Assembly (NCBI GenBank): GCA_028710695.1
Contig: JAQTTP010000002.1
Coordinates: 92,373 to 124,372, forward strand
From: Candidatus Iainarchaeum sp.
GTDB taxonomy: Archaea > Iainarchaeota > Iainarchaeia > Iainarchaeales > 0-14-0-20-30-16
DNA length: 32,000 bases
Reading direction: 5' to 3'
The position numbers were made by a program, and so were the translations under genes. The notes below the pieces were generated by a model. It did no database searches and had not been told where the DNA came from. It saw only the letters and a program-made list of their open reading frames with translations. Below are positions 1,753 to 22,757 of the stretch, one piece after another; position 1 is the first letter of the stretch, and the number at the start of each line of letters is the position of its first letter.

Positions 1753-1753
1753 C

Positions 1754-2902: not shown

Positions 2903-2903
2903 T

Positions 2904-4115
2904 CTAATTACCTTTCAAAGACCGCAACTCTTTCTTTTTTGTTTTATTTTTTTTGTAGAAATATATTCCAACTCCAATTCCAATTATTATAATAATATAA
3001 ACCAACCAAGCAAAAGAAATATCTTTTTTCACAATAAATAATGGGACTTCTTTTGTAAAGGTATATTCCTTGTCATATTGATCTAAATAGGAAATTTCCA
3101 CGTTTATTTTTTGGGTCCCTGTTTCAGCATTACTTAAAACATGCAAGTCAAAAATCCCTGAACTAGAATCATCTTCTTCTAATGAACCAACATAGGCAAT
3201 ATCAATTCCTTCGACTACTTGATTTTCCAATATTTTCATAGATGCGGATTTTATTGTAGACTTAGAAATATTTTCCAATTGTATGGACAAAGAAAAGTAA
3301 CCATCTTGTTTAAGTTTTGTTTCTCCAGTACTTAGAGATTTATCAATTGATGAAATTATTACAGTTGGCTTGTCTTCTACAATAAATGATACTGTCTCTA
3401 CATCGCTTATTGATCCTACTGCGTTAGCATTTAAATCAACATCAAATAATGCAGGAGTTGCATTTTTTGAAATTAAAAAAGTAAAAATTACATCTTTTGT
3501 TTGACCTGGATCTAAATCCCCCAAAAACTTTGACTTTTCGTCAAGAGCAATTAATTTATTTGTTCCAAAATCTGCCTCAACTTTAATTCCTTTCAAGGTA
3601 TTATTTCCTTCGTTTTTTACATATCCTTTTAGTTCAACCTTTTCATCAAGATATTTTTTATCCAAAGGATATTCAGTTAGAACCAAATTTATTTTATCAT
3701 AGTTTGAAACATTAATTGTTGTTTGGGTGTTAATAGTATACTTTTCTAGGCCATCTCTAAGATATTCAATTTTTACTGGTATTGAATAATAGCCCCCCTT
3801 TACAGAATCCTTAACTTTAAACCTCAATGCAAAGTTTCCAGTCTGACTAAACTTAATTACATCTAAATGATCAAGGCCAGTAATTATTTCAAAATCATTA
3901 CTAGTGGGCACAAGACTTACATTTACATCTTCTGCATCAACAGTGCTAGAAATGTTCTCTAATGTTATATTAATGCTAGCTTCACTATTCGGGTATATTG
4001 TTGTTGGATAAGAATTAGTGGAATCAACCTCAAGAATATAGGCATAATTCGAAGTCGCAGAGAATCCAAAACTCGCCAAAAGCAATACAAAAAATAAAAT
4101 CAAGAATTTTTTCAT
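2904..4115 (-). CDS. Secreted multi-domain beta-sandwich (CARDB/COG1361 'S-layer domain'-like) protein with C-terminal TM anchor
   Basis: I place the start at the internal ATG at 4115 (MKKFLILFFVLLLASFGFSA, a Sec-type signal). It is preceded by GGGGG and a TATA-like AAATATATAAAGG on the minus strand. About four repeats of a ~100-aa pattern occur (INITLENIS..., VELKGYVKNEGNNTLKGIKVEADF, FSLSIQLENISKSTIKSASMKI). Many N-x-S/T sequons. The C-terminus is a TM (WLVYIIIIIGIGVGIYFY) followed by a KKNKTKKK tail. First gene of the ABC operon. The fold assignment is inference. Confidence 0.6.
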   Translation of the reverse strand: MKKFLILFFVLLLASFGFSATSNYAYILEVDSTNSYPTTIYPNSEASINITLENISSTVDAEDVNVSLVPTSNDFEIITGLDHLDVIKFSQTGNFALRFKVKDSVKGGYYSIPVKIEYLRDGLEKYTINTQTTINVSNYDKINLVLTEYPLDKKYLDEKVELKGYVKNEGNNTLKGIKVEADFGTNKLIALDEKSKFLGDLDPGQTKDVIFTFLISKNATPALFDVDLNANAVGSISDVETVSFIVEDKPTVIISSIDKSLSTGETKLKQDGYFSLSIQLENISKSTIKSASMKILENQVVEGIDIAYVGSLEEDDSSSGIFDLHVLSNAETGTQKINVEISYLDQYDKEYTFTKEVPLFIVKKDISFAWLVYIIIIIGIGVGIYFYKKNKTKKKELRSLKGN

Positions 4116-4352
4116 TAATAAGCCCCCAATTAATATTATATAAGTATAGTCAGGAGCCTTTATATATTTTGTTTTTATGTGCAGCACATAAGGCAATAAT
4201 AACAATAGTCAGACAAAAAACAATAAAAAATTGCTTTGTGGCATTTATGCCACTGTTTTTCTTTTGGAAGACTGCAGCTTTTCCAAGAATCTTTTTTGCA
4301 AAGCAAAAAAATTCAGGGGCTAAAGCAGTTTGTGAAACAAACTGGCTTTTTC

Positions 4353-4371
4353 CTTTTCCAAAAAAGAAAAG
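4353..4371 (-). terminator. tRNA-Cys 3' trailer: short hairpin embedded in an oligo-T run
   Basis: The minus strand after the tRNA reads TACCAAGCTTTTCTTTTTTGGAAAAGG. The stem is CTTTTC/GAAAAG. The 22 nt AAGCTTTTCTTTTTTGGAAAAG are identical to the tRNA-Ser trailer. Confidence 0.5.
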
Positions 4372-4378
4372 CTTGGTA

Positions 4379-4450
4379 AGCAGGAGATGGGAGTTGAACC
4401 CACAATCGCCCGGTCTGCAGCCGGAAGCATTACCATTCTGCTACTCCTGC
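4379..4450 (-). tRNA. tRNA-Cys (GCA)
   Basis: Hand-folded 72 nt: acceptor GCAGGAG/CTCCTGC, D-arm GCAGAATGGTAATGC, anticodon stem TCCGG/CCGGG with loop CTGCAGA, T-arm GTGGG TTCAACT CCCAT, discriminator T. No encoded CCA. Confidence 0.9.
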
Positions 4451-4477
4451 CCCGAGAACAAACTTTCCCGTTAGAGT

Positions 4478-4508
4478 TGTATGTTGAACCAAAGGTTCAA
4501 GCATACTT
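4478..4508. repeat. 31-nt element copy A (TGTATGTTGAACCAAAGGTTCAAGCATACTT), an imperfect dyad
   Basis: Identical over 31 nt to 4768-4798. Arms GTATGTTGAACC / GGTTCAAGCATAC give 12 bp with one bulged G and an AAA centre. It lies between a TATA-like A/T box (4509-4523) and tRNA-Cys on the minus strand. Confidence 0.9.
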
Positions 4509-4523
4509 GCTTTTTTTTATAAG
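4509..4523 (-). promoter_or_regulatory. TATA-like box candidate for tRNA-Cys (minus strand CTTATAAAAAAAAGC)
   Basis: A/T box directly upstream (in minus sense) of 31-nt repeat copy A and about 60 nt upstream of the mature tRNA-Cys 5' end. The tRNA-Met trailer T-run lies further upstream, which argues for an independent transcription unit. Confidence 0.35.
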
Positions 4524-4526
4524 ACT

Positions 4527-4542
4527 GCGACATTTATGTCGC
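4527..4542. other. Perfect inverted repeat GCGACAT-TT-ATGTCGC
   Basis: 7-bp arms. It is a sequence relative of GTGGCAT-TT-ATGCCAC at 4238-4253, sharing the CATTTATG core. Confidence 0.7.
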
Positions 4543-4565
4543 CAGAGTTTTCTTTGGGAGGCTGT

Positions 4566-4589
4566 AGCTTTCTTTTACAAAAGAAAGCT
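4566..4589 (-). terminator. tRNA-Met 3' trailer hairpin with T-run
   Basis: The minus strand after the discriminator reads CTAAGCTTTCTTTTGTAAAAGAAAGCT. This is an 11-bp palindrome AGCTTTCTTTT/AAAAGAAAGCT with a 2-nt centre. Confidence 0.55.
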
Positions 4590-4592
4590 TAG

Positions 4593-4732
4593 TGCCAAGG
4601 GGGAGACTTGAACTCCCGTCCTCCAGATTTCTCTCCGAAATCTGGTTAAATCATCGCTTGCAAAGCAAGCTCATAATTCATAACCACGAATAGTTATGAG
4701 TCTGGCGCTCCAACCAACTGAGCTACCTTGGC
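4593..4732 (-). tRNA. tRNA-Met (CAU; elongator-type, or tRNA-Ile2 if C34 is modified) with a 66-nt intron
   Basis: Acceptor GCCAAGG/CCTTGGC, D-arm GCTC AGTTGGTTG GAGC, anticodon stem CCAGA/TCTGG with loop CTCATAA, T-arm GGGAG TTCAAGT CTCCC, discriminator A. The exons sum to 74 nt. G1-C72 and a non-GGG anticodon stem argue against an initiator. Confidence 0.8.
4629..4694 (-). other. tRNA intron at the canonical 37/38 position (boundaries ambiguous by +/-1 because of flanking A residues)
   Basis: Minus-strand sequence is ACTATTCGTGGTTATGAATTATGAGCTTGCTTTGCAAGCGATGATTTAACCAGATTTCGGAGAGAA. Internal helices are TGGTTA/TAACCA and GCTTGC/GCAAGC. TTATGAG is complementary to the anticodon loop CTCATAA. 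Confidence 0.7.
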
Positions 4733-4734
4733 CC

Positions 4735-4754
4735 TAGCCTTTTACAAAAGGCTA
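4735..4754 (-). promoter_or_regulatory. tRNA-Met 5' leader palindrome abutting the mature 5' end
   Basis: Minus strand reads TAGCCTTTTGTAAAAGGCTA: 9-bp arms with a 2-nt centre, ending 2 nt before tRNA position 1. It shares the CTTTTGTAAAAG core with the trailer palindrome. Confidence 0.6.
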
Positions 4755-4767
4755 AGTTTGCCAAAAG

Positions 4768-4798
4768 TGTATGTTGAACCAAAGGTTCAAGCATACTT
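4768..4798. repeat. 31-nt element copy B (identical to 4478-4508)
   Basis: Exactly 290 bp from copy A. It is again flanked on its minus-strand upstream side by an A/T box (GCTAAATAAAATT, 4799-4811) and lies upstream of tRNA-Met. Confidence 0.9.
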
Positions 4799-4900
4799 AA
4801 TTTTATTTAGCAAAACTGAGCCAGACTTGTAAAATTCTCATGTACAAGGATATATTCCTATCTTTAACCTTTTTTAGATAAGAAAGACTTATATTCTATT

Positions 4901-5566
4901 CTATTCCTCTAAGGCGTTATAATCATAAAGAAATTTGTTCATTCCATCCAAAATGTCTTGTTCATAAATTGTTTTTTCATTTATTACTATTCCGGGAATA
5001 TAATTTACGTCATAAAACTCTAAAATATTATCCACTGCACTAATTCCTACCTCAGAAGGAATACTAAAAATCCAAACCTTATCGCCATATTTGTCTTTAA
5101 TATCTTGTATCGCTGTTTCTAAAGGAGCACATTCATTACAGTTATAAGGATAAAAATACAAAATATAGTTTTTCACATACTGCGGACAAATAGAATTAAA
5201 CTTCTTAAGCCTCAACCACAAATCTAAATTATTGTACACATATTCTTTTTGTAATTTTTTTACTTCTTCTAAATTATCTTTGTCATCAGCAGCCAGATTA
5301 ACTTTCTTTCCCAAATCATACAAAAAATCTGACAACCCAATTAGCTGGTTCTCCATTAAATCACAAGAATTGGCATCAACCATAGTATCATAAAAATTCA
5401 TAGTTATTTTTAGATCTGTACTTTTATTGTAAATATCCAAAATATCATCATTCAAATCTGTTTTTTTCCAATCATAAACAAGATTTGCAAAAAGCAATGC
5501 AAAAAACATTACAGCAAAGGTAAATGCCAGAGCTTTATAAAATATTTTTTTCTTTCCGTTGTCCAT
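4901..5566 (-). CDS. Membrane-anchored thioredoxin-fold protein (CNEC active-site-like motif)
   Basis: N-terminal TM (FYKALAFTFAVMFFALLFANLV). C-terminal thioredoxin-like block YFYPYNCNECAPLE...NYIPGIVIN (CxxC plus cis-Pro-like). ATG at 5566 is preferred over the track's GTG at 5575, since it forms a TAATG stop/start overlap with the GT2 gene and follows GGTGGAG. Confidence 0.6.
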   Translation of the reverse strand: MDNGKKKIFYKALAFTFAVMFFALLFANLVYDWKKTDLNDDILDIYNKSTDLKITMNFYDTMVDANSCDLMENQLIGLSDFLYDLGKKVNLAADDKDNLEEVKKLQKEYVYNNLDLWLRLKKFNSICPQYVKNYILYFYPYNCNECAPLETAIQDIKDKYGDKVWIFSIPSEVGISAVDNILEFYDVNYIPGIVINEKTIYEQDILDGMNKFLYDYNALEE

Positions 5567-6828
5567 TATCTCCACCTTGTTTTGTATTTAGTAAATTGCA
5601 AAAATATTGCGCTTGCCCAGAAGAAAATCTGCGCAGGAGTATAGATTATTGGAGTTAATAATAATATAATAATATGTTTGAAAGTAATCTTCTCCTTACT
5701 CTCATAAAATCCAACAATATATGCTACAATCCACAAGATAAATGCAATTATTATTATAAAAAATAAAGACGAAAGCACATACATCGGATTTACTTCAAAA
5801 TACTTCTGTATCGCCACGAAAGGATTCGGGACTATTTTTAGATATATATACCAGTATATTTTTGTTATAAAAGTACTCAAAAAAGAGTAGAAGTTTGTTA
5901 TTAAATAATAAATTATTACTGCCAACATGCTGATTGTAACACTTACTATTGGTATCATAACTATTGAGAAAAATCCAAACTGTGGATCAAAAGCCATTTT
6001 TCTGTATTTTGCAAAGTTTATCAACGAGCCTCTGTTCCATCTTATTCTCTGCCAAAACAGTTTCTTCCAAGTTGGCATCACTTTTGTGGAAACTCTTGCA
6101 GATTTTGAACTAAAGATTTTATATCCCGCTTGTCTAATTCTAAAAGTAATCTCCATGTCTTCTGTAGGAGTTATGTCTTGGCTGTAGAACCCGCCAATCT
6201 TTTTCAACAAATTTTTTCTATATAGACTCAACGGCCCTTTAGTAACATATATTGATTCTAAGCCACCATAAGCAGTCAATAAAAAGTTAGAAAATATGTA
6301 TTCAATATGTTGAAACCATTCCACAAGCTTTTGTGGATTTTTTACAACCATCTTTGTTGTTACTGCGCCAACTGTTTTATCATCAAAATAACCAGTTATA
6401 TACTTCAGTGAATTTTTTTCAGGGAATGCATCGGCATCAACACAGCCGACTAGTTCATATTTTGCAATTTGAGTTGCCTCATTTAGACTTTCTGATTTTC
6501 CTCTTTGCCCTTTTTTCTTTACAACTCTTATGAAATTATATCTTTTTGCGAAGTTTGTTGCTAAAGAATAACTCTTATCTGTAGAGTTGTCATCTACTAC
6601 AATAACTTCAAAATCACCTTTGTGATTATTTTTCATTTCTACCAAAGATTTTAAAGTGTCCACAATTGTATTTTCTTCATTCCAAATTGGTACAACTATA
6701 GATACGCCATAATTCTTCTTAGACAGGGGGTCTTTTTTTGTTCTAAATTCAAAATATGCAAAGATATAGAGGATTACAAAGAAGAGCAAAATTCCAATGG
6801 AAAAAAGCAAAATATAATCCACGTACAT
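5566..6828 (-). CDS. Processive family-2 glycosyltransferase (cellulose/chitin/PNAG-synthase-like), integral membrane
   Basis: Carries the D,D,D,QxxRW signature: VVPIWNEE, VVDDNSTD, VDADA, TEDME, QRIRWNRG. One N-terminal TM and about four C-terminal TMs. ATG at 6828 is preferred (7 nt after the upstream stop); the track's start at 6861 is a TTG. Confidence 0.8.
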   Translation of the reverse strand: MYVDYILLFSIGILLFFVILYIFAYFEFRTKKDPLSKKNYGVSIVVPIWNEENTIVDTLKSLVEMKNNHKGDFEVIVVDDNSTDKSYSLATNFAKRYNFIRVVKKKGQRGKSESLNEATQIAKYELVGCVDADAFPEKNSLKYITGYFDDKTVGAVTTKMVVKNPQKLVEWFQHIEYIFSNFLLTAYGGLESIYVTKGPLSLYRKNLLKKIGGFYSQDITPTEDMEITFRIRQAGYKIFSSKSARVSTKVMPTWKKLFWQRIRWNRGSLINFAKYRKMAFDPQFGFFSIVMIPIVSVTISMLAVIIYYLITNFYSFLSTFITKIYWYIYLKIVPNPFVAIQKYFEVNPMYVLSSLFFIIIIAFILWIVAYIVGFYESKEKITFKHIIILLLTPIIYTPAQIFFWASAIFLQFTKYKTRWR

Positions 6829-6835
6829 TGTAAAA

Positions 6836-8509
6836 TCACTTATGACTATTAAAATAATCAAGATACTTATTAAAAAGGAGGTATTTCTCCGAACTATAAT
6901 TCACATCTGCCCCGTTGTCAAAAACAACATAAGGACTCGAAATAGAGGAAACCACTGCAAAATTATTATTTTTATCAATATAGCTTACTAACCCGGTTGA
7001 TGTAGAACCAATAGAGAATATGATATCATTGTTTTTTTCAAAATTATATCCTTGGGCCACATAAGACAATAACAGATCTTTAAAGTTCAAATGTGATAAC
7101 AAATCATAATTTTCTTCTTGTTCTAAATCGCTTGCAACAAAAATCAGAGGAACATTATAAGAAGAATGATTTTTTTCATTAAAATATCCTTTTTCTCCAT
7201 GATCTGAAACTATTACAATTAAAGTTTCATCAGACTTTCCAATTTCTTTGAGATAATTATAGAAATCATCAAAATAATAATTATAGTATTCTGTTCTACT
7301 TTGGTCTTTTAATGCAATATATTTCAAGGTATGGCCATAAATTAATTCTTGGTAAACAAATTGCTTTTCATTATTATTTGCAAGTTCTTTTAATTGGCCA
7401 AATACTGCACGATCTTCGCAAGCTTTTTCGAACTCTATCAAATGCATACAGATAAGATCTTCATCTGCACCATAATCCTCTTCTTTAAGAGTGATTATGT
7501 TTTTAAAATTATATTTAGTTATTTCGAATGGCGCACCAACATCGGAAATCAAAAAAGTTGTGTTGTAGTTGTTATCATTGAAATAATCCACAAGATTCTG
7601 TTTTTTTATTACTTTTTCAGCATACAAAGAATACCAATCACTATAAGAATATGATTCATATGGGATCAAAGTAGAAGATAGCATTGTTAACATCGCAGTT
7701 CTACTATCCTGGTTGTTTGTATAATAATTTTTATAAACTATTGAATTCTCTTTATTTTTTTCAAAAAAGTTTTTCTCCACTGGCACTTTTTTAATATCTT
7801 TATAGAACATATAATTAGGTATTTCTTCCATTACAAAAACAAATATCTTTTTGTATTTCATTTGGGGATCAAAGTTAAAATTAAGATCTTGTGAAAAACT
7901 TTTGTCAAATAAATTGAAATCATAATTAATATCAATATTCAAGTCCACAAGTTCTTTTCTATCTTCAAAAAGATATCTTATTGTATCAACATAAGGGTTT
8001 GCAAAATAATTTCCGAATATGACAGGATAAACTATTACGAGCCCAAGAACAACAAAAAAACATATTTTTATTGCTTTCCTTGAAATTATTAATTTGTCCA
8101 GCTTTATCAAATAAGCAACTACAAAAATCGCCACAAAGATCAGCAAACACAATAAGATTAGTTTATAATTAATTATCTGCTTTGCTACAAAAATCGCAGT
8201 ATCTAATTTCACAGAAAAAAATGAATATGCTTTATTTGATAAATCATTTGCAAAATAAGCATACATGAAACACTGAAGAGTATTATAAAAATACAAAATG
8301 TAGAATATTGGCGAGGTCAGTTTTCTAGAAATCTTTAATGATGCAAACAAAAATAAAAAGAAAATAAAGGCATATACCAACACGTCAAAAACATAAGAAG
8401 AAATTATCAAAGAAACATTGCTTGTAGAAAATATTTTTACGAACAGCAAACAAACTAAAGTCAGAATAATGAGTTTAAGTTTATAGTTATAGAAGTTTAA
8501 TTTACTCAT
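6836..8509 (-). CDS. Membrane-anchored alkaline-phosphatase-superfamily transferase (LtaS/EptA/BcsG-like), paralog 1
   Basis: About five N-terminal TMs, then an extracytoplasmic domain with YYTNNQDSRTAMLTMLSS and IVIVSDHGEKGYF...YNVPLIFVASD (sulfatase/PEA-transferase-type SDHGE and VPLI motifs). ATG at 8509. A TATA-like box lies 23 nt upstream. Confidence 0.7.
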   Translation of the reverse strand: MSKLNFYNYKLKLIILTLVCLLFVKIFSTSNVSLIISSYVFDVLVYAFIFFLFLFASLKISRKLTSPIFYILYFYNTLQCFMYAYFANDLSNKAYSFFSVKLDTAIFVAKQIINYKLILLCLLIFVAIFVVAYLIKLDKLIISRKAIKICFFVVLGLVIVYPVIFGNYFANPYVDTIRYLFEDRKELVDLNIDINYDFNLFDKSFSQDLNFNFDPQMKYKKIFVFVMEEIPNYMFYKDIKKVPVEKNFFEKNKENSIVYKNYYTNNQDSRTAMLTMLSSTLIPYESYSYSDWYSLYAEKVIKKQNLVDYFNDNNYNTTFLISDVGAPFEITKYNFKNIITLKEEDYGADEDLICMHLIEFEKACEDRAVFGQLKELANNNEKQFVYQELIYGHTLKYIALKDQSRTEYYNYYFDDFYNYLKEIGKSDETLIVIVSDHGEKGYFNEKNHSSYNVPLIFVASDLEQEENYDLLSHLNFKDLLLSYVAQGYNFEKNNDIIFSIGSTSTGLVSYIDKNNNFAVVSSISSPYVVFDNGADVNYSSEKYLLFNKYLDYFNSHK

Positions 8510-8531
8510 AATTTATAATTAAAATACAAAA

Positions 8532-8543
8532 GTTATATATATC
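8532..8543 (-). promoter_or_regulatory. TATA-box candidate (minus strand GATATATATAAC) for 6836-8509
   Basis: Located in the 50-nt gap between the two transferase paralogs, about 23 nt upstream of the ATG. This spacing would give a leaderless or near-leaderless mRNA. Confidence 0.4.
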
Positions 8544-8559
8544 TATCAAGAAATCAGAA

Positions 8560-10221
8560 TTACTTATCGTTAAATTCTGTTTTACTTGTTTGGTAGCAAA
8601 CCAACTGTTCTTGGAGATAATTATTATCTTTTGTTGTAGAACTTAAAATATTATACTCCCCAACATCTTTTTCTTCAAAAATGCCATTCTCAAAAGCAGT
8701 TTTGAACCCAAATGTTTTGCTTGCAGTAGGCCCAACAAAAAACAATTGTTCTTCAGGATAGTAGTCTAGCCCATATAGGTAGCTAAACAAAACAGTCTTG
8801 AAATCCAAATGCGATAATAAATTGTTGTCTTCGCGATAGGTTAAATCATTTGCAACAAAAATCAATGGAATATTATATCCTGCAGTTTTGGAATAATCTA
8901 CTTTTTCTCTAAGTCCGTGGTCAGAAACTATTGCAATAAGCAAATCTTTATCCAGGCCCTCTGCTTTTATTTTTTTGTAAAACTCTGCAAGATATTTTGA
9001 ATAATATTCTGTTTTTGACAGCCCGCTTTCTTTAATATACAAATTACTGTGCCCGTAAATAAATTCTTGCATAATAAAGACTTTTTCTTTTTTCAAATCT
9101 TCCAAAAGCCTATCTAATAACACGATATCCTCACATCCAATATCATATGGATATGGATTAAAACACATGAATTCTTTTGTCAGGGAATCATAGTTCTCTT
9201 TTATATCATTTATTTTTGACCATTTGTACTTAGCAAGCTCACAAGGGGCCGCAGTATTAGAGACATAAAAACTAGTATAATAGTTTTCGTCATTAAAATG
9301 ATCCACCAAATTATACTCTTCCATCATTGGATGGCCACACAAACTATACTCTTCAGAATAAGTATATGCTTCCGTTGGAATAAATTGAGATGATAATATA
9401 GTTACCATTGAAGGAACACTATCTTGGTTGTTTGTATAATAATTAAAATAATAATTTGAATTACCTTTTGTTATTCCAAAAAAATTCTGATCTTCTGAGA
9501 CTTTAGAGATATCTTTGTAGAATTCGCCATAAACCAGACTTTCCATGACAAAAACCACAATTTTTTTGTATTTGGACTCTTGTATAAGAGCAGGATAATT
9601 GTTTTGTTTTAAAAAAGATAGATTTGTATCACAATTAAAATCTGTCAAGGTAATTGTTTCTTTTGTTTCGGCCAGGGCATATATTGTATTCACATAAAAA
9701 TTATCAACATTAGAGACAAATATTATTGGGGTGCCGACTAATAAAAGTAAGGCCAAGAAAAGCAGAGGCAATACTGCTTTTTTTGGAAGATGAATTTTTA
9801 TAAAATTAGATAACAAATAAGAAATTACAACAGCAAGTACAAGACAAATTATAAAAAAGATCAGATAATGCCAGGGGAATAAAAATGTAAATGAAAACGA
9901 AGCATTTCCAGAATCAATTGACAAAAAAGACAACCCACGCCCAAACATATCATCCATAAAATACGAGGTAAGATATGCAGTAACTGTATGGAACAGATAC
10001 AAAAAAATAAATACAATTTTACTAAGAATAGTTGAAAGCTTATCAATCCCAATATAAATAAAGAAAAGAAGGGCATATATTCCAGAATCAAAAAGCCAAG
10101 TTGCCAAAATGTACATTGGCCTTGAACTACAAGTTAGTTTCACAGCAAGCAAGCAAATTATTGAAATAAGAATCACAAAGAAAAATACTTTCTTCCAACT
10201 CCATTTCAAAAAAAATGACAT
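8560..10221 (-). CDS. Membrane-anchored alkaline-phosphatase-superfamily transferase (LtaS/EptA/BcsG-like), paralog 2
   Basis: Same architecture as paralog 1 (YYTNNQDSVPSMVTILSS; AIVSDHGLREK...YNIPLIFVAND). ATG at 10221 (MSFFLKWSWKK) is preferred; the track's start at 10236 is a GTG. Confidence 0.7.
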   Translation of the reverse strand: MSFFLKWSWKKVFFFVILISIICLLAVKLTCSSRPMYILATWLFDSGIYALLFFIYIGIDKLSTILSKIVFIFLYLFHTVTAYLTSYFMDDMFGRGLSFLSIDSGNASFSFTFLFPWHYLIFFIICLVLAVVISYLLSNFIKIHLPKKAVLPLLFLALLLLVGTPIIFVSNVDNFYVNTIYALAETKETITLTDFNCDTNLSFLKQNNYPALIQESKYKKIVVFVMESLVYGEFYKDISKVSEDQNFFGITKGNSNYYFNYYTNNQDSVPSMVTILSSQFIPTEAYTYSEEYSLCGHPMMEEYNLVDHFNDENYYTSFYVSNTAAPCELAKYKWSKINDIKENYDSLTKEFMCFNPYPYDIGCEDIVLLDRLLEDLKKEKVFIMQEFIYGHSNLYIKESGLSKTEYYSKYLAEFYKKIKAEGLDKDLLIAIVSDHGLREKVDYSKTAGYNIPLIFVANDLTYREDNNLLSHLDFKTVLFSYLYGLDYYPEEQLFFVGPTASKTFGFKTAFENGIFEEKDVGEYNILSSTTKDNNYLQEQLVCYQTSKTEFNDK

Positions 10222-10305
10222 AAAATCACACCACACATTTTATGTTCCTGTTTGATATTTTTGCAATTTTTTCTGAGCATAAATTCAAACTTGACATAAG
10301 ACCAC

Positions 10306-11190
10306 TCAAACTAGTAAAAATATAATATATGCTAAGGGACAAATAATTATAAAATAGATTATAAATTTCTTCCAACTACCATCAATTAAAGCAACAAAAA
10401 CACTTGTAATTAAAGATAGCACACCAATGTAAACATATATTGCTAATTTTGCAGTTTCCAATAGCACCGCATCAAAAGAAAATACATCTATTGTTGTATC
10501 AAAAGAGAAATTGGATACTATGTTCAACACCCATTTCAGCACAAGAGGCACAATTACTGCCGACGATATTAGCAAGGTGTATTTCTGTATTGTAAGCCCA
10601 ACTTGCTTTTCTTTCTCAACAATTTCAGTTTCGATCAGATTTTTTGACAATTTTGTAAATAGTTCCGAGACCTCAATTCCCGATTCATAAGATATTTTCA
10701 AGTAATTTATTATCTGCCTTAACTTTACATTTTTATTTCTCTTAACAATGTTATCTAAAGCATCTTGAACTGCCGTTCCTTTTGTTATCTGAGAATGGCA
10801 GATTTTGAATTCATAAGACAAAACATTATTTGAAATTGAATTATCCGAAAAATATTTTATTATTTCTATGATATCTGTTCCTTTTGGAAACAAAGAGGCT
10901 TGTATTAAAAGATCTGAAAGCCCAAGAGTTATTTTTTTCTGTTTATAATCTTCAAGATAGATGAAAAACAAATAAAAGAACAAAAAAGAAAATAAGGCCA
11001 CAAAAATTATAAGACAAAGTAAAAGAAGTAAAGAAATTGTGCCAATAATATAAAAAAACAACAAAACACTAAATAAAAAAACAAATAATGTAAAGGAGTA
11101 TTTTATATAGTCCGAGAGATCCAGAGAATTTTTGCTTAGAATAAATTCAAAATCAGATTTTAGCTTTGAAAAATTGAAGTTTATTTGCAT
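10306..11190 (-). CDS. Type IV pilus platform protein, single T2SSF domain (TadC/EpdK-like)
   Basis: 294 aa. N-terminal TM pair, a cytoplasmic helical domain (LLIQASLFPKGTDIIEIIKYF...ALDNIVKRNKNVKLRQIINYLKISYESG), then C-terminal TMs. TAATG stop/start overlap with the upstream gene at 11190. Confidence 0.65.
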   Translation of the reverse strand: MQINFNFSKLKSDFEFILSKNSLDLSDYIKYSFTLFVFLFSVLLFFYIIGTISLLLLLCLIIFVALFSFLFFYLFFIYLEDYKQKKITLGLSDLLIQASLFPKGTDIIEIIKYFSDNSISNNVLSYEFKICHSQITKGTAVQDALDNIVKRNKNVKLRQIINYLKISYESGIEVSELFTKLSKNLIETEIVEKEKQVGLTIQKYTLLISSAVIVPLVLKWVLNIVSNFSFDTTIDVFSFDAVLLETAKLAIYVYIGVLSLITSVFVALIDGSWKKFIIYFIIICPLAYIIFLLV

Positions 11191-11954
11191 TATCTGCCCT
11201 CCTTAAGATGATAAGGCATTTGATAAACTACAAAAGAGATATAGACAATATCAATTAAAGGAAATACAGCAAAGAATAGGATCATTAGCTGAGTCGGAGT
11301 AATATTAACTTGAATTATAGTAGATCCCACTGTAACAAACATTAGATATAAAGAAGGAAGAATTGCTGTGGCTGCAATAAAAAACAAGGAATACATTACT
11401 AATTTACTTGAATACCCTTTTGCTTCAAGTTTTTGTTTATTTAGTAATTCTTGCGCCAAAGTAGTCAAAATATTATCTTTATACCCAGATTCATAAAGCA
11501 CCATTATTTGTGATAAAGACCTTTTTAGAGGGACTGAATTTATTCGTTCAGCAATTTTAAAGAAAGAATCTTGCAAATTACTGCCTTTTAAATAATTAAA
11601 CAACAACTTTTCAAAAACAATATTTATTGTTTTGTATTTTCGTGAATTTACTTTTATTGAATCCAGAAAATCAGAGTTCAAAAATAAACTTATATCCAAA
11701 TCCATTAAAAAATAAGGCAAATCTTTTTCTAGGTTCCCAATAAAATGTTTTTTCAGCAAGTAAGGCAGCACTAAGCAAAAGGCATAGATACATAAACTAA
11801 AGAACGCAGAATAAACAAGAGCATACACTGAAAAAAAAGGAAATAAAAACGCAAGGAACACAAAATATCCAATTATTAATGATTTAAACATCAACTTTCT
11901 ATATTCTTTTTCGCCCTTGTTAAAAAACAAACTTACATAAAACAATTCTTTCAT
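11190..11954 (-). CDS. Type IV pilus platform protein, single T2SSF domain (TadB/EpdJ-like)
   Basis: About 254 aa from ATG at 11954, which is 1 nt after the ATPase TGA stop; the track's start at 11963 is a GTG. N-terminal TMs, a helical domain (FFKIAERINSVPLKRSLSQIMVLYESGY), then C-terminal TMs. Confidence 0.65.
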   Translation of the reverse strand: MKELFYVSLFFNKGEKEYRKLMFKSLIIGYFVFLAFLFPFFSVYALVYSAFFSLCIYAFCLVLPYLLKKHFIGNLEKDLPYFLMDLDISLFLNSDFLDSIKVNSRKYKTINIVFEKLLFNYLKGSNLQDSFFKIAERINSVPLKRSLSQIMVLYESGYKDNILTTLAQELLNKQKLEAKGYSSKLVMYSLFFIAATAILPSLYLMFVTVGSTIIQVNITPTQLMILFFAVFPLIDIVYISFVVYQMPYHLKEGR

Positions 11955-11955
11955 T

Positions 11956-13524
11956 TCATTCACTTAAAATATATGAATTAAACATTTTACTAAACTCGTC
12001 TATCTTTAGTTCTTTATCAGCAAGTAAAAACTCAAGATAATCCCTTAATTCTTTTGCTAGCACAGAATATTTCTTTCCAAACACAAGTTCTATTTTTTCT
12101 TTAACTTTTTTGCTTTCATTTACTTGCTCAAATTCATTTTTCAAAGCATTATATTTAAACAAGATATTTACTTTTGAATTTTCAACTTCTGCAATTTCAA
12201 ACAACTTTCTTCGTTCTATTTTCTTCCCGTCTTTTATAGAGGTCCACCTTTTTTGTAGAATAATTAAATCCAATGCATTCAAATCCTGCTCAGTTAGCCC
12301 CAAATTCTTAAGCCTAGATATCGTTTCGTTCACGCTAAGCCCATGAAATGTGGCATAGCTTCCCTTTCCCTGGCCCGCAAGAATAGTATCTAAATAGGCA
12401 TCAACTTCTTCTTTAGTCCTTATTTCCCCAACAATCACTCTATCGGGCCGCATTCTTAAAGTTGTTTTTATTAAATCTGTCATATTTATTTTCTGTTCCG
12501 CATTAACTTTCAAGCAAACTCTATGGTTATGGGGGATGTTTATTTCAGGGGTTTCTTCAGTAATAATTATTCGCTCATCTAAAGGAACAAAAGAAAATAA
12601 TGAGTTCAGAAGGGTGGTTTTTCCACTCCCTGTATTTCCTGCAATAAGAACATTAATTTCTGACTGCATGGCCAAGGCAAGAAAAATTGCGAGGTCTAAA
12701 GAAATCGTGTTATTTTTTATAAGATCCAAGGGAGTCAGAGGGTTAAATCTAAATTTTCTTATGGTAATTGAAATTCCAGAATTAACAACCGGCTTAATAA
12801 TTGCATTAAGCCTTGATCCATCTTTTAAACTTGCATTTAAAATTGGGCTAGACAAAGTAATCCTTCTACCAATGTTTCTAGACATTTTATTAACTAGCTC
12901 TCGCAAATAGTTTTCATTAGTGAAATATAAATTTGAGTCATGCCAGCCTTTGTTGATTACATATACACAGATTTTTTTGTCTTTGCCATAACCATTTATT
13001 GCTATTTCCTCAATATCTTTACTATCTAATAAATAAGACAAGGGCCCAAAAGAAAATAATTCTTTTCTTATTATTTCCAACAAATATTTTTGCTGGTCAT
13101 TTTCAAGAATTATATTCTTTAAATTACAAAACTCCACAAATTGTGTTTCCAACTCTGCTTCTAAGTTCTCCGAAGGGATATCTTCTATACTTTTCAAAAA
13201 CACAGACATAAGATATTTTTCTGCATCTGATAGCTTTTTTATTTTTAGAATACAGGATCCGTCAAGATAAAAATTATCAAACTCAGCAGTATCTTTAGAT
13301 CCCGCCTTTTCAAGTTCCCAGCCCAAATCTACTGCAGAATATTCTAAAAGTTCTTTTTCTTCTTGTATTTCAGGGAACTTAAAAGAATTATATTTTTGTA
13401 AAACTTTTCGCTTTAAGTTTTTGAAAATTAGTTTTGTTTTCTTTATCTTACTTTTTTTTGCCTTTATAATTTCCATTAAAAATAAAAAAGGAAAAAGAGA
13501 ATCACTTACTTTGTGATAACTCAT
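11956..13524 (-). CDS. Type II/IV secretion-family ATPase (FlaI/TadA/EpdL-like)
   Basis: Walker A AGNTGSGKTTLLNSL. Asp/His-box region IITEETPEINIP...RPDRVIVGEIRTKEE...GSYATFHG. The start at 13524 overlaps the DsbA-like gene by 23 nt. An alternative start is M17 at 13476. Confidence 0.85.
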   Translation of the reverse strand: MSYHKVSDSLFPFLFLMEIIKAKKSKIKKTKLIFKNLKRKVLQKYNSFKFPEIQEEKELLEYSAVDLGWELEKAGSKDTAEFDNFYLDGSCILKIKKLSDAEKYLMSVFLKSIEDIPSENLEAELETQFVEFCNLKNIILENDQQKYLLEIIRKELFSFGPLSYLLDSKDIEEIAINGYGKDKKICVYVINKGWHDSNLYFTNENYLRELVNKMSRNIGRRITLSSPILNASLKDGSRLNAIIKPVVNSGISITIRKFRFNPLTPLDLIKNNTISLDLAIFLALAMQSEINVLIAGNTGSGKTTLLNSLFSFVPLDERIIITEETPEINIPHNHRVCLKVNAEQKINMTDLIKTTLRMRPDRVIVGEIRTKEEVDAYLDTILAGQGKGSYATFHGLSVNETISRLKNLGLTEQDLNALDLIILQKRWTSIKDGKKIERRKLFEIAEVENSKVNILFKYNALKNEFEQVNESKKVKEKIELVFGKKYSVLAKELRDYLEFLLADKELKIDEFSKMFNSYILSE

Positions 13525-15205
13525 AATCCACTACTTTCTTGAATGCACTATAATCTACATATCCGCCAACTATTGCGTTGCCAACAATAAATGCTGGAGT
13601 CCCATTTAACCCCAAATTGGATGCGAAATCAGCAATATTTGTCAATTCTAAGTTGTATGTAGTTCCATTGTAACAAGTGTCAAATTTAGTTAAATCTAAT
13701 CCTACTTGTTGTGCAACATCCTTTACAACATTAGCATCATACCCTTCTTCAGTAGTAATAAATATTTTTTCATGGTATTGCCAATACTTGCCTTGCTCCG
13801 CAGCACACATTGCTGCCAAAGATGCTAAATGAGCTGTTGGGTGTAAATCAGCAATTGGGTGTTGTAGGTAGTAAAAGTTTACCTTTCCAGCATCAATATA
13901 TTCGTTCTTAAGTTTTCCATAATTGTTTTTGTTGAATTCTCTACACCAAGGACATTGATAATCTGAAAATTCAATTATTGTTACTTTTGCATCTTTACTT
14001 CCTATTGAGTAGTCTTGTGACAAATTCTTTGCAAAGTCTGCCAAGTCAACTAAATAGTAGTAACCTTGAATTCCAACTGCTGCCATTGTCTGAGTCTTAT
14101 ATAGGCCCAATACGTTGTTATCTGTGTCTATATAAGGAGCAATATTTTCATAAAATGGACTTTCAGTAATTTGTCCTTCAAATACATATGCAGGAAGCAT
14201 TTCTATGCCCAAGTCTGAAATAAGTTTTTTTCCAGCAACACTATCTGCATCAACTATTTCGTCAGTAATTGAATAGTAATAATCAAACACTTCAAAAGGA
14301 TTTACATTTTGTTGCTCAAAATAGTCCAAACCAACTTTACCAATTATTTTTACAGTCATTGCTGGCTTTATTGGCTTTCCTAAATTTACATTCTGAACAA
14401 CTGAATCTATAATGTCTAAAGCAAACTTCTCGCCGTCATAAACAAACATAGGGTCTAAGCTCATGAAACCATTCAAAGCAATTGTTTGGAACTGTGAGTC
14501 AACCATGTTTTTCTTGTCTTCTGATTTATAACAAGCATCAAACTTTGTTTTGTCTAAGCCTAATTGAGTAACATAAGAGTTTATTTTTTCGTCAGTATAA
14601 ATTCCAGGAAGCTGTTGTAGATAGTAGTATTTACTAGAATAATATCCAACTGATGTTGCCCCATTGTGATCTTTGTTTGCATTTGTTAATAATAAATCGA
14701 TCATTTCTTTTTCTTTTCCTTGATCTTTAGCACATAATTCTGCTATTTTTGCATTCTTTCCTTCTTTAAAATCAAATCCGCCCAAACTCTTTGAGCTTTC
14801 TATTCCACCATATAGTTCAAACTTTATATCCACACCAGGATATTTTGCAACTAATGACTTATAATTCAAATCATAAAATGCTGCTGTGCTTGGAGACAGA
14901 TAATCCCCATATAAAGTAAATATTACCTTATCTGAAACTATTTCTGTATTATTATCATCAGTTGGTTTTACTTCTTTATTTCCAAAAGCAAAAGCCAAAC
15001 CAATTACTACAATTATTACTATTATTAATCCAAGTATAAAGTATTGATTTGTAAAAATTTGTTTTAATTTGCTGCAATCACAGCTTTTACAACATTTTTT
15101 TGGTTCTTCAACAGTTTCTGCTGTTTTTGTATCTATTTTTTTTACGGGTTTTTCAGTCTTTTTTTCCACTTTCTTTACAACTTTACTTTTCTTCTTAACT
15201 ACCAT
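13502..15205 (-). CDS. Membrane-anchored tandem DsbA-like protein (N-terminal domain lacks CxxC, C-terminal domain has CPWC)
   Basis: K-rich N-terminus carrying CCKSCDC, then one TM. The C-terminal domain has EFSDYQCPWCREF...AAMCAAEQGKYWQYH...KFDTCY...LNGTPAFIV (DsbA/Thioredoxin_4-like). The upstream domain repeats this pattern (GDYLSPSTAAF...AELCAKDQGK...KFDACY...LNGFMSLDPMFV), with SPST in place of CxxC. AAGGTGA lies 4 nt before the ATG. Confidence 0.75.
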   Translation of the reverse strand: MVVKKKSKVVKKVEKKTEKPVKKIDTKTAETVEEPKKCCKSCDCSKLKQIFTNQYFILGLIIVIIVVIGLAFAFGNKEVKPTDDNNTEIVSDKVIFTLYGDYLSPSTAAFYDLNYKSLVAKYPGVDIKFELYGGIESSKSLGGFDFKEGKNAKIAELCAKDQGKEKEMIDLLLTNANKDHNGATSVGYYSSKYYYLQQLPGIYTDEKINSYVTQLGLDKTKFDACYKSEDKKNMVDSQFQTIALNGFMSLDPMFVYDGEKFALDIIDSVVQNVNLGKPIKPAMTVKIIGKVGLDYFEQQNVNPFEVFDYYYSITDEIVDADSVAGKKLISDLGIEMLPAYVFEGQITESPFYENIAPYIDTDNNVLGLYKTQTMAAVGIQGYYYLVDLADFAKNLSQDYSIGSKDAKVTIIEFSDYQCPWCREFNKNNYGKLKNEYIDAGKVNFYYLQHPIADLHPTAHLASLAAMCAAEQGKYWQYHEKIFITTEEGYDANVVKDVAQQVGLDLTKFDTCYNGTTYNLELTNIADFASNLGLNGTPAFIVGNAIVGGYVDYSAFKKVVDYELSQSK

Positions 15206-15349: not shown

Positions 15350-15414
15350 CTTTCAATCCAAAGATATATGATTACTAATTATTTGTAATTCTAAAATCCT
15401 TAGGAGTGGTATTA

Positions 15415-16380
15415 ATGGTGGCTACCTGCCCGTCATGTAATTCAAAAAATATTAAAAAAGACAAAGACAAAGGAGAAGTTATTTGCTACGATTGTGGTAA
15501 TGTTTTCGAGGACAACATAAATTTAGCAAAAGAATGGAGAACTTTCGATTCTAGCGAATACAACAAAAAAGCAAGATCAGGAAGCCCAATGCAGTATTCT
15601 AAACTAAATAAAGGTATTTCCACCATGATTGAAATGGGTGGAAGAGATGCAAGAGGAAACAAGCTATCAAGCGACACAAAAGCACAGATGTACAGAATAG
15701 CAAGATGGCACAAGAGAACAACTGTTTCAAACTCCTTGCAGAGAAACCTTTCTATTGCTTTAACAGAGCTTAGGAGAATAGCGTCATACTTAAACATCCC
15801 TGAGCCACTAATAGAAAAAGCGGCTTTGCTTTACAGAAAGACTGTAGACAAGGAACTAATTAGAGGAAGATTGATTGAGTCCGTTGTTGCTGCTGTTCTT
15901 TATGCTGTTTGTAGAGAATCAAATGTTCCAAGAACTCTAAACGAAATGGCTGAAGCTTCAGGAATAAGCAAAAAGGATATTGGAAGAACATACAGGTTCT
16001 TAACTAAAGAGCTTGAATTAAATGTTCCTTTAACAAACCCAATATACTATATTCCAAGGTTCACTTCAGAACTTGGTTTAAGCGGAGAAGTCCAAGAAGA
16101 AGCAAGAAAGACTTTACAGAAAGCAATAGACCAAGGATTAATTTCTGGAAGAGGCCCAACTGGTGTAGCTGCTGCTGCAGTTTACATCGCTGCTTTGATT
16201 AAGGGAGAAAGAAGAACCCAGAAGCAAGTAGCAAATGTTGCAGGGGTAACAGAAGTTACAATTAGGAACAGATATAGAGAACTTAAAGAAAGATTGGGCT
16301 TAGAAGTCGAAGATGACTTCATAAACGTAGGCGGCCCAGATACAGAAATAGTAACTGATGAAAGCAAAAAGAAGCTATAA
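15415..16380 (+). CDS. tfb: Transcription initiation factor B (TFB/TFIIB)
   Basis: N-terminal Zn ribbon CPSCNS...CYDCG. Two cyclin-fold repeats with the typical IRGRLIESVVAAVLYAVCRE and GRGPTGVAAAAVYIAA blocks. ATG at 15415 is preferred over the track's GTG at 15406. Confidence 0.95.
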   Translation: MVATCPSCNSKNIKKDKDKGEVICYDCGNVFEDNINLAKEWRTFDSSEYNKKARSGSPMQYSKLNKGISTMIEMGGRDARGNKLSSDTKAQMYRIARWHKRTTVSNSLQRNLSIALTELRRIASYLNIPEPLIEKAALLYRKTVDKELIRGRLIESVVAAVLYAVCRESNVPRTLNEMAEASGISKKDIGRTYRFLTKELELNVPLTNPIYYIPRFTSELGLSGEVQEEARKTLQKAIDQGLISGRGPTGVAAAAVYIAALIKGERRTQKQVANVAGVTEVTIRNRYRELKERLGLEVEDDFINVGGPDTEIVTDESKKKL

Positions 16381-16417: not shown

Positions 16418-17260
16418 TTATTTTGGCTTTCTTAAATGTTCTATCCAAACTCTAAACTTTGATTTTTTAGGGGGCTCTAACTTTTTTGCTAGTCTTTCGT
16501 GATCTTTTCTTAAACTTTCAAGAAGCCCAGAATCTGATAATCTTTTTAAATGGTCTCCAATTACAAATTTGTTTTCTTTTTTTAGCAATTTCAAAAGTCT
16601 TTGTCCAGCAAATATACTTAACTCTCTGCCAAATAATAACTGATTTGTTGCAACAAAATTTAACACATCCAAATTATTGAGAACGCCCACAGACCTCAAT
16701 ACAGATCTTTTTTTATTTGCGCCCTTCCACCATATTGATTTTTTTGTTTCTTTCAAAAGGACCTCAGGGACATTTGGATTCAAACAAATAGCTATTTGAG
16801 TATCTAAACTTGCGTCATGTATCCGAGAAACTAGCCCATTTAAAATTTTTTCTTTGTTTTGAGGAGAAATAACTGTTTCTTGAGGATCAAATAACATTTT
16901 TTTTATGATGCTTGCACCATCTATATTTGCTATTTCTTTTGGATCAAGATTTGTTAATCTCGCAAATAATTGACTTTCGGCATAAAATACATAAACATCT
17001 GTATGGTTTGGGTTCTTTGCTTGTTCATACAAGGTAGCCAGGTCCATAAACTTAAGCCCCAATATTTCATCGGCATCATGTACATTTTTTATGACCCCAC
17101 CTTCAGTTTTAATATGTATAGGTGGTAATGGCCAATTATCTACCCTTATTATACCCCTATGATCAGTAAAAACTACTTTTTGTTTGCCAGAAACTGCCTT
17201 TATTCTTGCGTCAGGATATGTTTTCTTAAATTCTGCCCAGCCATCATCACGACGTTCCAT
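16418..17260 (-). CDS. Hypothetical protein, 280 aa, no recognisable catalytic motif
   Basis: Long ORF with ATG at 17260, 23 nt downstream of the Nudix gene. The C-terminal half looks alpha-helical and repeat-like (ICLNPNVPEVLLKE...), with a basic C-terminus. It is the last gene of the pilus-2 co-directional run. Confidence 0.6.
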   Translation of the reverse strand: MERRDDGWAEFKKTYPDARIKAVSGKQKVVFTDHRGIIRVDNWPLPPIHIKTEGGVIKNVHDADEILGLKFMDLATLYEQAKNPNHTDVYVFYAESQLFARLTNLDPKEIANIDGASIIKKMLFDPQETVISPQNKEKILNGLVSRIHDASLDTQIAICLNPNVPEVLLKETKKSIWWKGANKKRSVLRSVGVLNNLDVLNFVATNQLLFGRELSIFAGQRLLKLLKKENKFVIGDHLKRLSDSGLLESLRKDHERLAKKLEPPKKSKFRVWIEHLRKPK

Positions 17261-18173: not shown

Positions 18174-18174
18174 G

Positions 18175-22708: not shown

Positions 22709-22757
22709 TAAAATCACGTAACAGAAACTGAGAGATGTAAATAATAGTTATACTTTA

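Follow-up and report, generated by a model that had tools for sequence, protein, structure and literature searches.

A ten-kilobase surface-gene block in an Iainarchaeota genome reads as juxtaposed, separately inherited units, among them a candidate glycan-decorating triad

We analysed a 32,000-nucleotide (nt) stretch of contig JAQTTP010000002.1 from Candidatus Iainarchaeum sp. (the window), in which eight consecutive minus-strand genes at 4901–15205 encode, in order of transcription, a DsbA-like oxidoreductase, a secretion ATPase, two pilus platform proteins, two membrane-bound transferases of the alkaline-phosphatase (AP) superfamily, a family 2 glycosyltransferase (GT2) and a thioredoxin-like (Trx-like) protein (Table 1). 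Our preferred interpretation, with a probability of about 0.68, is that this block is a genus-specific juxtaposition of separately inherited units and not one system, and that the transferase–GT2–Trx-like triad at its end probably makes and decorates a surface glycan. An earlier reading of the window from its sequence alone (the sequence-only reading) had proposed that disulfide catalysis, a pilus motor and a polymer pathway are linked in the block as one array; this is not supported, since the adjacency is absent from relatives that carry the individual genes. Every family in the block is of a known kind, and the ten-kilobase array is not a real unit. The host is a low-GC (~31%) DPANN archaeon, and the loci of its nearest relatives (labelled L) come from Iainarchaeota/Diapherotrites metagenome-assembled genomes.

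Pilus core and triad in related genomes

For the comparison, near relatives were those with an ATPase 69–91% identical to that of the window, and distant pilus-core relatives those at ~51–54%. In three independent contigs of the latter kind (L041, L048 and L049; ATPase 51–54%), the ATPase and two T2SSF genes form a three-gene unit, with orthologues of both platform proteins present in each. This pilus core lies between divergent phenylalanyl-tRNA synthetase (PheRS) genes and a convergent cysteinyl-tRNA synthetase gene in L048 and L049, and the same PheRS genes lie upstream of it in L041. No DsbA or glycan-related gene was found within 8–10 kb of the core in any of the three. The metagenome scan with the ATPase protein returned three loci only, its patterns being over-specific, and the wider ATPase neighbourhoods come from four contig look-ups.

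The triad occurs at seven other loci (L002/L042, L003, L004, L005, L007, L022/L043 and L050), rearranged in L007 to Trx–GT2–Trx–transferase, and a look-up with a 38%-identical Trx-like homologue retrieved it again in L050–L052. Homologues of the ATPase, the platform proteins and the DsbA-like protein were absent from the DNA available around these seven triads (5–10 kb upstream in six; the L004 contig begins ~225 bp before the triad, and only its downstream 10 kb was checked). In L042 and L050 the triad lies beside the genes for ribosomal protein L21e, Rpb4 and RIO1, and its flanks are ordinary housekeeping genes wherever gene calls exist. Counting the window, eight archaeal genomes link the transferase gene to GT2, as do the bacterial loci L021 and L029. 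Judged from gene order, the triad is thus shown to be a conserved functional neighbourhood. Of the pilus–transferase–GT2 adjacency to which the sequence-only reading had drawn attention, the transferase–GT2 link recurs; the pilus link is missing from L041, L048 and L049 and, in the DNA available, from the seven triad loci.

Near relatives differ in the middle of the block. L045 (ATPase 91%) has the order NUDIX–TFB–DsbA–ATPase–platform–platform, followed directly by an orthologue of transferase paralog 2 (85%). A ~1.75-kb segment carrying paralog 1 (~8550–10304) is missing there as a clean indel, a presence/absence polymorphism. L037 (ATPase ~69–70%) keeps both DsbA–ATPase–platform–platform and GT2–Trx–CARDB; between its platform and GT2 genes stand genes for an APH/choline-kinase-like protein, GtrA, a DPM-synthase-like GT2, a methyltransferase and PMT_2, and no transferase of the family found in the window. 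The slot between the platform gene and GT2 thus appears, from gene order, to be a replaceable site for extracytoplasmic decoration genes. We regard the block as modular: L041, L048 and L049 carry the pilus core on its own, triads at other loci have no pilus gene in the DNA available, and the slot is swapped between close relatives. The Dsb/pilus/triad juxtaposition is, on the gene orders compared, a genus-level, short-range synteny.

Could all eight genes nevertheless form one co-regulated adhesion module, in which a decorated exopolymer works together with the pilus motor and platform and with the disulfide catalysts? The genes run in one direction with little space between them, the order DsbA–ATPase–platform–platform ... 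GT2–Trx–CARDB persists down to 69% ATPase identity, and hydropathy places every product except the cytoplasmic ATPase in the membrane or at the surface. The spacing, however, is no more than background and the norm across the window: the minus-strand run is larger than the block (607–15205, 11 protein genes and two tRNAs), of the 13 same-strand gene pairs elsewhere in the window, 11 are spaced by −14 to +47 nt, and the widest gaps within the block (84 and 50 nt) lie on either side of the paralog 1 gene. The adjacency is gone at ~51–54% ATPase identity, the triad recurs at the seven other loci, the middle genes vary between close relatives, the apparent DsbA/ATPase overlap is artefactual and a promoter-like element inside the block is conserved (both below). 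Such a module is therefore improbable.

Table 1 Features of the block, in order of transcription (aa, amino acids; ORF, open reading frame; AF2, AlphaFold2 model)
Feature	Position	Strand	Basis and remarks
DsbA-like oxidoreductase, 567 aa	13502..15205	-	Pfam Thioredoxin_4 and DSBA; CPWC
FlaI/TadA/EpdL-type secretion ATPase, 506 aa from revised start	11956..13476	-	Pfam T2SSE; longest ORF to 13524 (522 aa)
Platform protein 1 (TadB/EpdJ-like), 257-aa ORF	11190..11954	-	Divergent T2SSF; paralogy to platform protein 2; longest ORF to 11963
Platform protein 2 (TadC/EpdK-like), 294 aa	10306..11190	-	Pfam T2SSF
Transferase paralog 1, 558-aa longest ORF (to 10236)	8560..10221	-	Pfam Sulfatase; start revised
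TATA-like box	8532..8543	-	Read from sequence and compared with L045
Transferase paralog 2, 557 aa, first triad gene	6836..8509	-	Pfam Sulfatase; AF2; Foldseek
Membrane GT2, 420 aa from ATG 6828	5566..6828	-	Pfam GT2 families; longest ORF 431 aa to 6861
Membrane-anchored thioredoxin-fold (Trx-like) protein, 221 aa from 5566	4901..5566	-	Sub-threshold Pfam Thioredoxin; AF2; longest ORF 224 aa to 5575

The transferase–GT2–Trx-like triad

Much of what the sequence-only reading had said of the single genes was borne out. All eight minus-strand ORFs are present at their coordinates. Searches with profile hidden Markov models (Pfam matches listed at E ≤ 0.01) recovered T2SSE, T2SSF, Sulfatase, GT2 and Thioredoxin_4/DSBA, with the 257-aa platform protein assigned by paralogy and the CNEC-containing Trx-like protein matching below threshold. 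An Epd/Tad-like pilus core of one ATPase and two single-domain platform paralogs, a GT2 with the complete processive-synthase motif set between flanking transmembrane (TM) helices, membrane-anchored thioredoxin-fold proteins at both block ends (CPWC in the DsbA-like protein, CNEC in the Trx-like protein) and an internal TATA-like box were all found. Plus-strand ORFs within the block (for example 12536–12910) were rejected as antisense shadows of well-supported minus-strand genes.

The two transferases match Pfam Sulfatase (8.8e-08 for paralog 1 and 7.7e-12 for paralog 2) and are 34% identical, an old duplication; paralog 1 groups with the homologues P0010 and P0015, apart from paralog 2. Paralog 1 has five N-terminal TM helices and an extracytoplasmic AP-superfamily domain. 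The AF2 model of paralog 2 (mean predicted local distance difference test (pLDDT) 87) contains five long TM helices and two short (interface) helices between TM3 and TM4, in agreement with hydropathy. Foldseek matched this model to 3lxq, full-length PbgA/YejM and LtaP/LtaS at ~11–14% identity, with E-values of 1e-12 to 1e-10 for PbgA/YejM and LtaP/LtaS. In an alignment of 23 sequences that includes both window paralogs, E228, Q267-D268-S269, H393, D436-H437-G438 and the cysteine pair C354/C364 are invariant. The alignment and a spacing analogy with LtaS predict E228, D436 and H437 as metal ligands and S269 as nucleophile; the spacing of E228/S269/D436/H437 mirrors that of E255/T300/D475/H476, the metal/nucleophile set of LtaS. 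The curated LtaS, EptA, OpgB and BcsG models gave no match, and NCBIfam returned nothing for paralog 1 and a spurious E = 0.0034 for paralog 2. Thus, of the LtaS/EptA-like character proposed for the two proteins, the fold, the five-TM layout and the invariant residues stand, and recognition by a curated LtaS or EptA model does not.

The Pfam name and the best PDB sequence matches, to sulfatases and phosphonate monoester hydrolases, could suggest that these proteins are hydrolases (sulfatases or phosphodiesterases scavenging nutrients) unrelated to the GT2 product. Yet even at E ≤ 10 the PDB profile search gave only ~50-residue stretches around the DHG metal motif of those enzymes, and the formylglycine motif C/S-x-P-x-R is absent, the nucleophile region reading NNQDSRT. 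Anchoring by five TM helices together with interface helices typifies the lipid-headgroup transferases related to LtaS, PbgA and BcsG, and the gene is linked to GT2 in the eight archaeal genomes and two bacterial loci. We therefore consider the hydrolase explanation highly improbable.

The transferase family is small: a word-indexed search returned 52 proteins, and a scan of GTDB species genomes gave 35 loci. It is common to DPANN archaea and Myxococcota (Polyangiales) and occurs also in Calditrichota, Bacteroidota and Acidobacteriota (L012–L016, L019–L021, L024–L030, L032 and L034), a patchy spread that suggests inter-domain transfer. At the bacterial loci L021 and L029, the GT2 encoded beside the transferase is a giant protein of >1100 aa. 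In the Forterrea-type genome of L043, genes for a Zn-dependent phospholipase C and a low-molecular-weight phosphatase (13669–14881) directly follow the triad; these neighbours hint at lipid-headgroup metabolism around the cassette.

The position of the transferases raises a further alternative, namely that they, and paralog 1 especially, put phosphoethanolamine- or phosphocholine-type groups on pilins or S-layer proteins, as Neisseria PptA does on PilE. PptA belongs to the EptA/LtaS alkaline-phosphatase superfamily. It is a membrane phospho-form transferase acting on type IV pilin (PMC4010543), the transferases directly follow the pilus core in the window and in L045, and a choline-kinase-like gene takes the same place in L037. 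However, at the seven other loci the transferase goes together with GT2 and the Trx-like gene, and the flanking DNA available there contains no pilus gene; nor was a pilin gene found near the transferases in the window. In L044, moreover, a paralog-1-type transferase occupies the same position beside L21e; the 10 kb upstream of it contain no pilus gene, and the contig stops ~70 nt past it, before any GT2. We give this explanation little chance.

The GT2 matches Pfam Glyco_tranf_2_3 (3.1e-28) and Glycos_transf_2 (4.9e-28); Glyco_transf_21 and ceramide glucosyltransferase were hit as well. By hydropathy, two TM segments precede the catalytic domain and at least three follow it, and these could form a channel. 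Its sequence contains VVDDNS, VDADA (DxD), TEDME and QRIRW, and the D, DxD, ED and QRxRW residues are kept in four orthologues; by these motifs the protein carries the complete processive-synthase set. The best NCBIfam model was PgaC_IcaA (TIGR03937; 6.6e-39, residues 32–383), whose score of 134 bits does not reach the 422.3-bit cut-off. In the PDB, 6yv7 matched best (2.1e-15), and BcsA chains matched too. A gap of 7 nt separates the paralog 2 stop codon from the GT2 start codon.

Tandem transferases beside a glycosyltransferase would also fit the synthesis of a lipoteichoic-acid (LTA)-like polymer or lipoglycan, with GT2 building a glycolipid anchor on scavenged archaeal lipid and the paralogs acting as primase and polymerase of polyglycerolphosphate, as Listeria LtaP and LtaS do. 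The resemblance to the folds of LtaP and LtaS, the LtaS-like spacing of the metal/nucleophile pattern, the age of the two paralogs and the GT2 matches to the lipid glycosyltransferases Glyco_transf_21 and ceramide glucosyltransferase all agree with this scheme. But L045 has only one transferase between its platform gene and the contig end, and triads elsewhere carry one, so that the two-enzyme arrangement is not conserved; the GT2 has the full processive-synthase motif set, and the literature yielded no report of LTA-like polymers in archaea. On balance the scheme is unlikely.

The Trx-like protein scores 20.4 bits against Pfam Thioredoxin, under the 23.5-bit cut-off, and retains a CNEC motif and the cis-proline. 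In its AF2 model (pLDDT 76), a TM helix at the N terminus leads into a helical domain, where the conserved C68 and C127 are located, and a Trx domain. Foldseek matched the model to thioredoxins with target-normalised TM-scores of 0.5–0.6, which places it in the thioredoxin fold. An exhaustive profile search (E ≤ 1e-3) collected 734 cluster representatives of ~210–235 aa, a family for which no Pfam model scores above threshold. Among the 151 best-scoring near-full-length representatives of the 734, the N-terminal TM helix is present in 150, C68 with C127 in 149, CxxC in 132 and the cis-proline in 150. Homologues of this protein carry the labels P0175 and P0179–P0327.

In every relative examined, the Trx-like gene lies directly beside the GT2 gene. 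In the window its start codon overlaps the GT2 stop codon as TAATG at 5566, behind a AGGTGGAG Shine–Dalgarno-like site, and on this arrangement the Trx-like gene is translationally coupled to GT2. The Forterrea-type orthologues in L005, L022 and L043 have lost CxxC, yet their gene still adjoins GT2. We dropped the idea that the CxxC makes the C354–C364 disulfide of the transferase, as that pair is invariant where the Trx-like protein lacks CxxC; the idea is also undercut by L037, where the Trx-like gene stays with GT2 although the transferase has been replaced.

The TATA-like box is centred ~28 nt upstream of the paralog 2 start codon, ATG 8509, a spacing that suits a leaderless transcript, and its region (8525–8549) is 96% identical to L045 though the gene upstream differs there. 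By these sequence features the triad probably has its own leaderless promoter.

The pilus core, the DsbA-like gene and their surroundings

The ATPase matches PF00437 (T2SSE; 6.7e-38) above the gathering score and contains the Walker A motif expected of the FlaI/TadA family. Its top NCBIfam models are FlaI (5.8e-57) and TadA (7.2e-51), both under the equivalog cut-offs, and its homologues are plentiful in DPANN (4955 at E ≤ 1e-20). Many of these (573–603 aa; for example P0070–P0079, P0090 and P0091) carry a fused 4Fe-4S ferredoxin domain that the window protein does not have. Platform protein 2 matches PF00482 (T2SSF; 3.1e-07), and its start codon overlaps the platform protein 1 stop codon as TAATG at 11190. 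Platform protein 1 crosses the membrane several times and has a single, divergent T2SSF domain (E = 0.031, hence no Pfam match at the listing threshold) and is paralogous to platform protein 2 over the T2SSF region (BLASTP 1e-06). Its orthologues in L048 and L049 have weak T2SSF matches, and NCBIfam was silent for both platform proteins. Read from gene content and order, the ATPase and the two single-T2SSF platform paralogs are an autonomous Epd/Tad-type type IV filament assembly core. An ORF search found neither a pilin with a class III signal nor a prepilin peptidase gene in the block, and no peptidase gene in the window. The core would build its filament from pilins encoded elsewhere, as for Methanococcus maripaludis epdJKL, where the pilin and peptidase genes are located away from that locus.

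The DsbA-like protein matches PF13462 (Thioredoxin_4; 1.6e-30, 106.9 bits) and PF01323 (DSBA; 2.4e-18, 67.1 bits), both above cut-off; the NCBIfam Rcas_1661 family scored 125 bits, under its 190-bit cut-off. It has a single N-terminal TM helix (residues 56–74) and a C-terminal Thioredoxin_4/DSBA domain with CPWC. Its gene is preceded by its own TATA-like box and a GGTGAT Shine–Dalgarno-like site, followed by an oligo-T tract after the stop codon, and adjoins the ATPase gene only in L037–L040, L045 and L047, with no DsbA gene in L041, L048 and L049. The protein would probably act as a general extracytoplasmic disulfide catalyst.

Two gene starts change the junctions of the block. The closest ATPase homologues are 503–509 aa long, as against 522 aa for the longest ORF in the window, and in L045 an in-frame TAA stands immediately 5' of the ATG that matches ATPase M17; on these grounds we place the ATPase start at 13476. 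A T-rich lead-in to ATGGAAA is identical in the window and L045, and L037 has a similar one. The 23-nt DsbA/ATPase overlap, which the sequence-only reading had put forward as a feature that might recur in relatives, is thus on sequence comparison a longest-ORF artefact: the true start lies 25 nt past the DsbA stop, across the oligo-T tract. In both L045 and L037, a terminator-like hairpin and T-run fill this spacer between the DsbA and ATPase genes. The paralog 1 start is more likely ATG 10221, behind a GGTGTGAT Shine–Dalgarno-like site and as in the L001 gene call, so the gap before this gene is 84 nt and not 69. The other junctions are as first listed when the original start codons are used.

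Across the TFB gene (15406–16380), which lies on the upstream side of the block, a second type IV filament-like locus occupies 17742–22717 on the minus strand and is syntenic in L037 and L040. Its products are a T2SSE ATPase of 765 aa, a ten-TM protein of 752 aa in which two stretches match T2SSF weakly and, at 17742–18173, a 146-aa protein with an RNKKGQ class-III-like signal and a TM helix, the sole pilin-like ORF in the window. Beside TFB, a 280-aa protein without a Pfam match (16418–17260, minus strand) marks a second variable slot; it is not at that position in L040 and L045, and its L037 counterpart is 30% identical.

On the other side of the block, a tRNA gene with anticodon CAU and a 68-nt intron (4593–4732, minus strand; Rfam 57.7 bits, missed by ARAGORN) sits between the block and tRNA-Cys (4378–4451). 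A 42-nt direct repeat, 93% identical and with an internal palindrome, lies just 5' of each tRNA gene (4478–4519 and 4768–4809) and could serve both genes as a promoter or processing element. Further on, 607–4205 (minus strand) encodes a 433-aa surface protein (signal peptide, C-terminal TM helix, faint CARDB/Rib-like repeats) and two MacB/FtsX-type permeases. In L037, too, a CARDB-type surface-protein gene comes next after GT2 and the Trx-like gene; that locus ends before the permease position.

Proposed mechanism and comparison with known systems

In the mechanism we propose for the triad, GT2 would polymerise and translocate a beta-linked glycan, or glycosylate a lipid, at the membrane. The five-TM AP-superfamily enzyme, with Ser269 and its metal site, would take a phospho-headgroup of the phosphoglycerol or phosphoethanolamine type from a membrane lipid, hold it as a phospho-enzyme on Ser269 and pass it to the emerging glycan outside the membrane, by analogy with BcsG/BcsA and OpgB/OpgH. 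The Trx-like protein would serve GT2 as an extracytoplasmic accessory subunit whose CxxC chemistry is dispensable in some lineages. The upstream slot would supply extra or alternative decorations, with a second transferase in the window and, in L037, Gtr/PMT_2-type glycosylation and possibly choline chemistry.

Several points weigh against this interpretation. That the juxtaposition is kept down to 69% ATPase identity could mean that co-location is under weak selection. The transferase family is only ~12% identical to any solved structure of LtaS, PbgA or EptA and matches no curated LtaS or EptA model, so that the donor, the acceptor and the choice of transferase over hydrolase activity are unproven predictions from sequence and model. 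For about 25 of the 35 transferase-family loci, most of them from Myxococcota and other bacteria, no such GT2 lies in the neighbouring DNA (up to 10 kb to either side, contig permitting). The closest solved GT2, 6yv7, is a crenarchaeal mannosyltransferase implicated in N-glycan biosynthesis and no proven polymer synthase. Operon boundaries rest on motifs, TATA-like strings being common in an AT-rich genome, and with no convincing promoter seen upstream of the ATPase gene, read-through from the DsbA gene is possible.

More tentatively, and with less confidence than in the modular reading of the block, we suggest that the triad may be an undescribed Iainarchaeota (DPANN) three-gene system making a headgroup-decorated beta-glycan or lipoglycan, with decorating genes exchanged as a surface-variation hot spot beside a pilus operon. 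Our literature search found no description of an archaeal transferase–GT2–Trx triad, of LtaS-like archaeal systems or of Iainarchaeota surface loci. If the suggestion is right, the system would be an archaeal counterpart of phosphoethanolamine-cellulose or LTA, with a bearing on host attachment or virus evasion. DPANN surfaces are poorly understood, and a conserved pairing of a synthase-type GT2 with a headgroup-type transferase in archaea would give an initial clue to phospho-decorated glycans or LTA-like polymers in this domain. The thioredoxin-fold family, with its 734 representatives, supplies a new candidate accessory protein of synthase-dependent glycan secretion that can be tested, and the exchange of cassettes among close relatives suggests that the surface varies as it does at O-antigen and capsule loci. 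For annotation, tight co-directional packing in compact DPANN genomes does not equal an operon or a composite machine; here the packing is background, and synteny decays within the class.

Among known systems, the pilus core resembles Epd and Tad in its FlaI/TadA-type ATPase followed by two single-T2SSF platform paralogs, as TadA is accompanied by TadB and TadC. For such a set of a single ATPase and two platform paralogs, EpdL with EpdJ and EpdK of M. maripaludis is the precedent in the literature, and in relatives of the window the core likewise forms its own locus without pilin genes, as epdJKL does (PMC4371748). It differs in that the window yielded no gene for a pilin, a prepilin peptidase or a Tad accessory protein (such as TadZ or RcpA) that could be assigned to it, scores lie under the NCBIfam equivalog cut-offs, and the platform proteins are very divergent. 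Extracytoplasmic glycosylation of the GtrA/GtrB/GtrC type (also CsbB/GtcA/YfhO for LTA), another route for decorating a surface glycan from outside, is represented by the genes in the L037 slot and not in the window; it bears on the window only as comparative evidence that decoration genes occupy the slot.

LtaS/LtaP and PbgA/YejM are among the best structural matches of the transferase, PbgA aligning over its full length; the E...S/T...H...DH pattern has LtaS-like spacing, and the tandem paralogs recall LtaP and LtaS. The low identity, the serine in place of a threonine nucleophile, the want of a curated LtaS match, the linkage to a GT2 synthase and a second paralog that is dispensable in the close relative L045 set the window proteins apart. 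The GT2 shares its size, TM layout and GT-A motifs with PgaC/IcaA, NodC and 6yv7; against PgaC/IcaA stand the sub-cut-off equivalog score and the absence of PgaD/IcaD and of a PgaB-type deacetylase. OpgH and OpgB, in which OpgB decorates OpgH glucans, offer a further likeness to the triad, from which they differ in partner protein and host.

The triad can also be compared with the phosphoethanolamine-cellulose system of E. coli (BcsA with BcsG). The window system has no PilZ domain, BcsB, BcsC, BcsE or BcsF; its GT2 is minimal (~420 aa) and closer to PgaC/IcaA and 6yv7; its metal ligands follow the E/D/H pattern of LtaS; its partner is a thioredoxin-fold protein; and its host, an archaeon, has ether lipids and lacks an outer membrane. 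BcsG was not among the best 50 Foldseek matches listed for the paralog 2 model. E. coli BcsG has five TM helices, two interface helices and a Ser278 nucleophile, and transfers phosphoethanolamine from phosphatidylethanolamine to nascent cellulose (PMC11379886). The window shares with BcsA and BcsG the pairing of a membrane GT2 that carries the processive-synthase motifs D, DxD, TED and QxxRW with a five-TM, two-interface-helix AP-superfamily transferase that has a predicted serine nucleophile.

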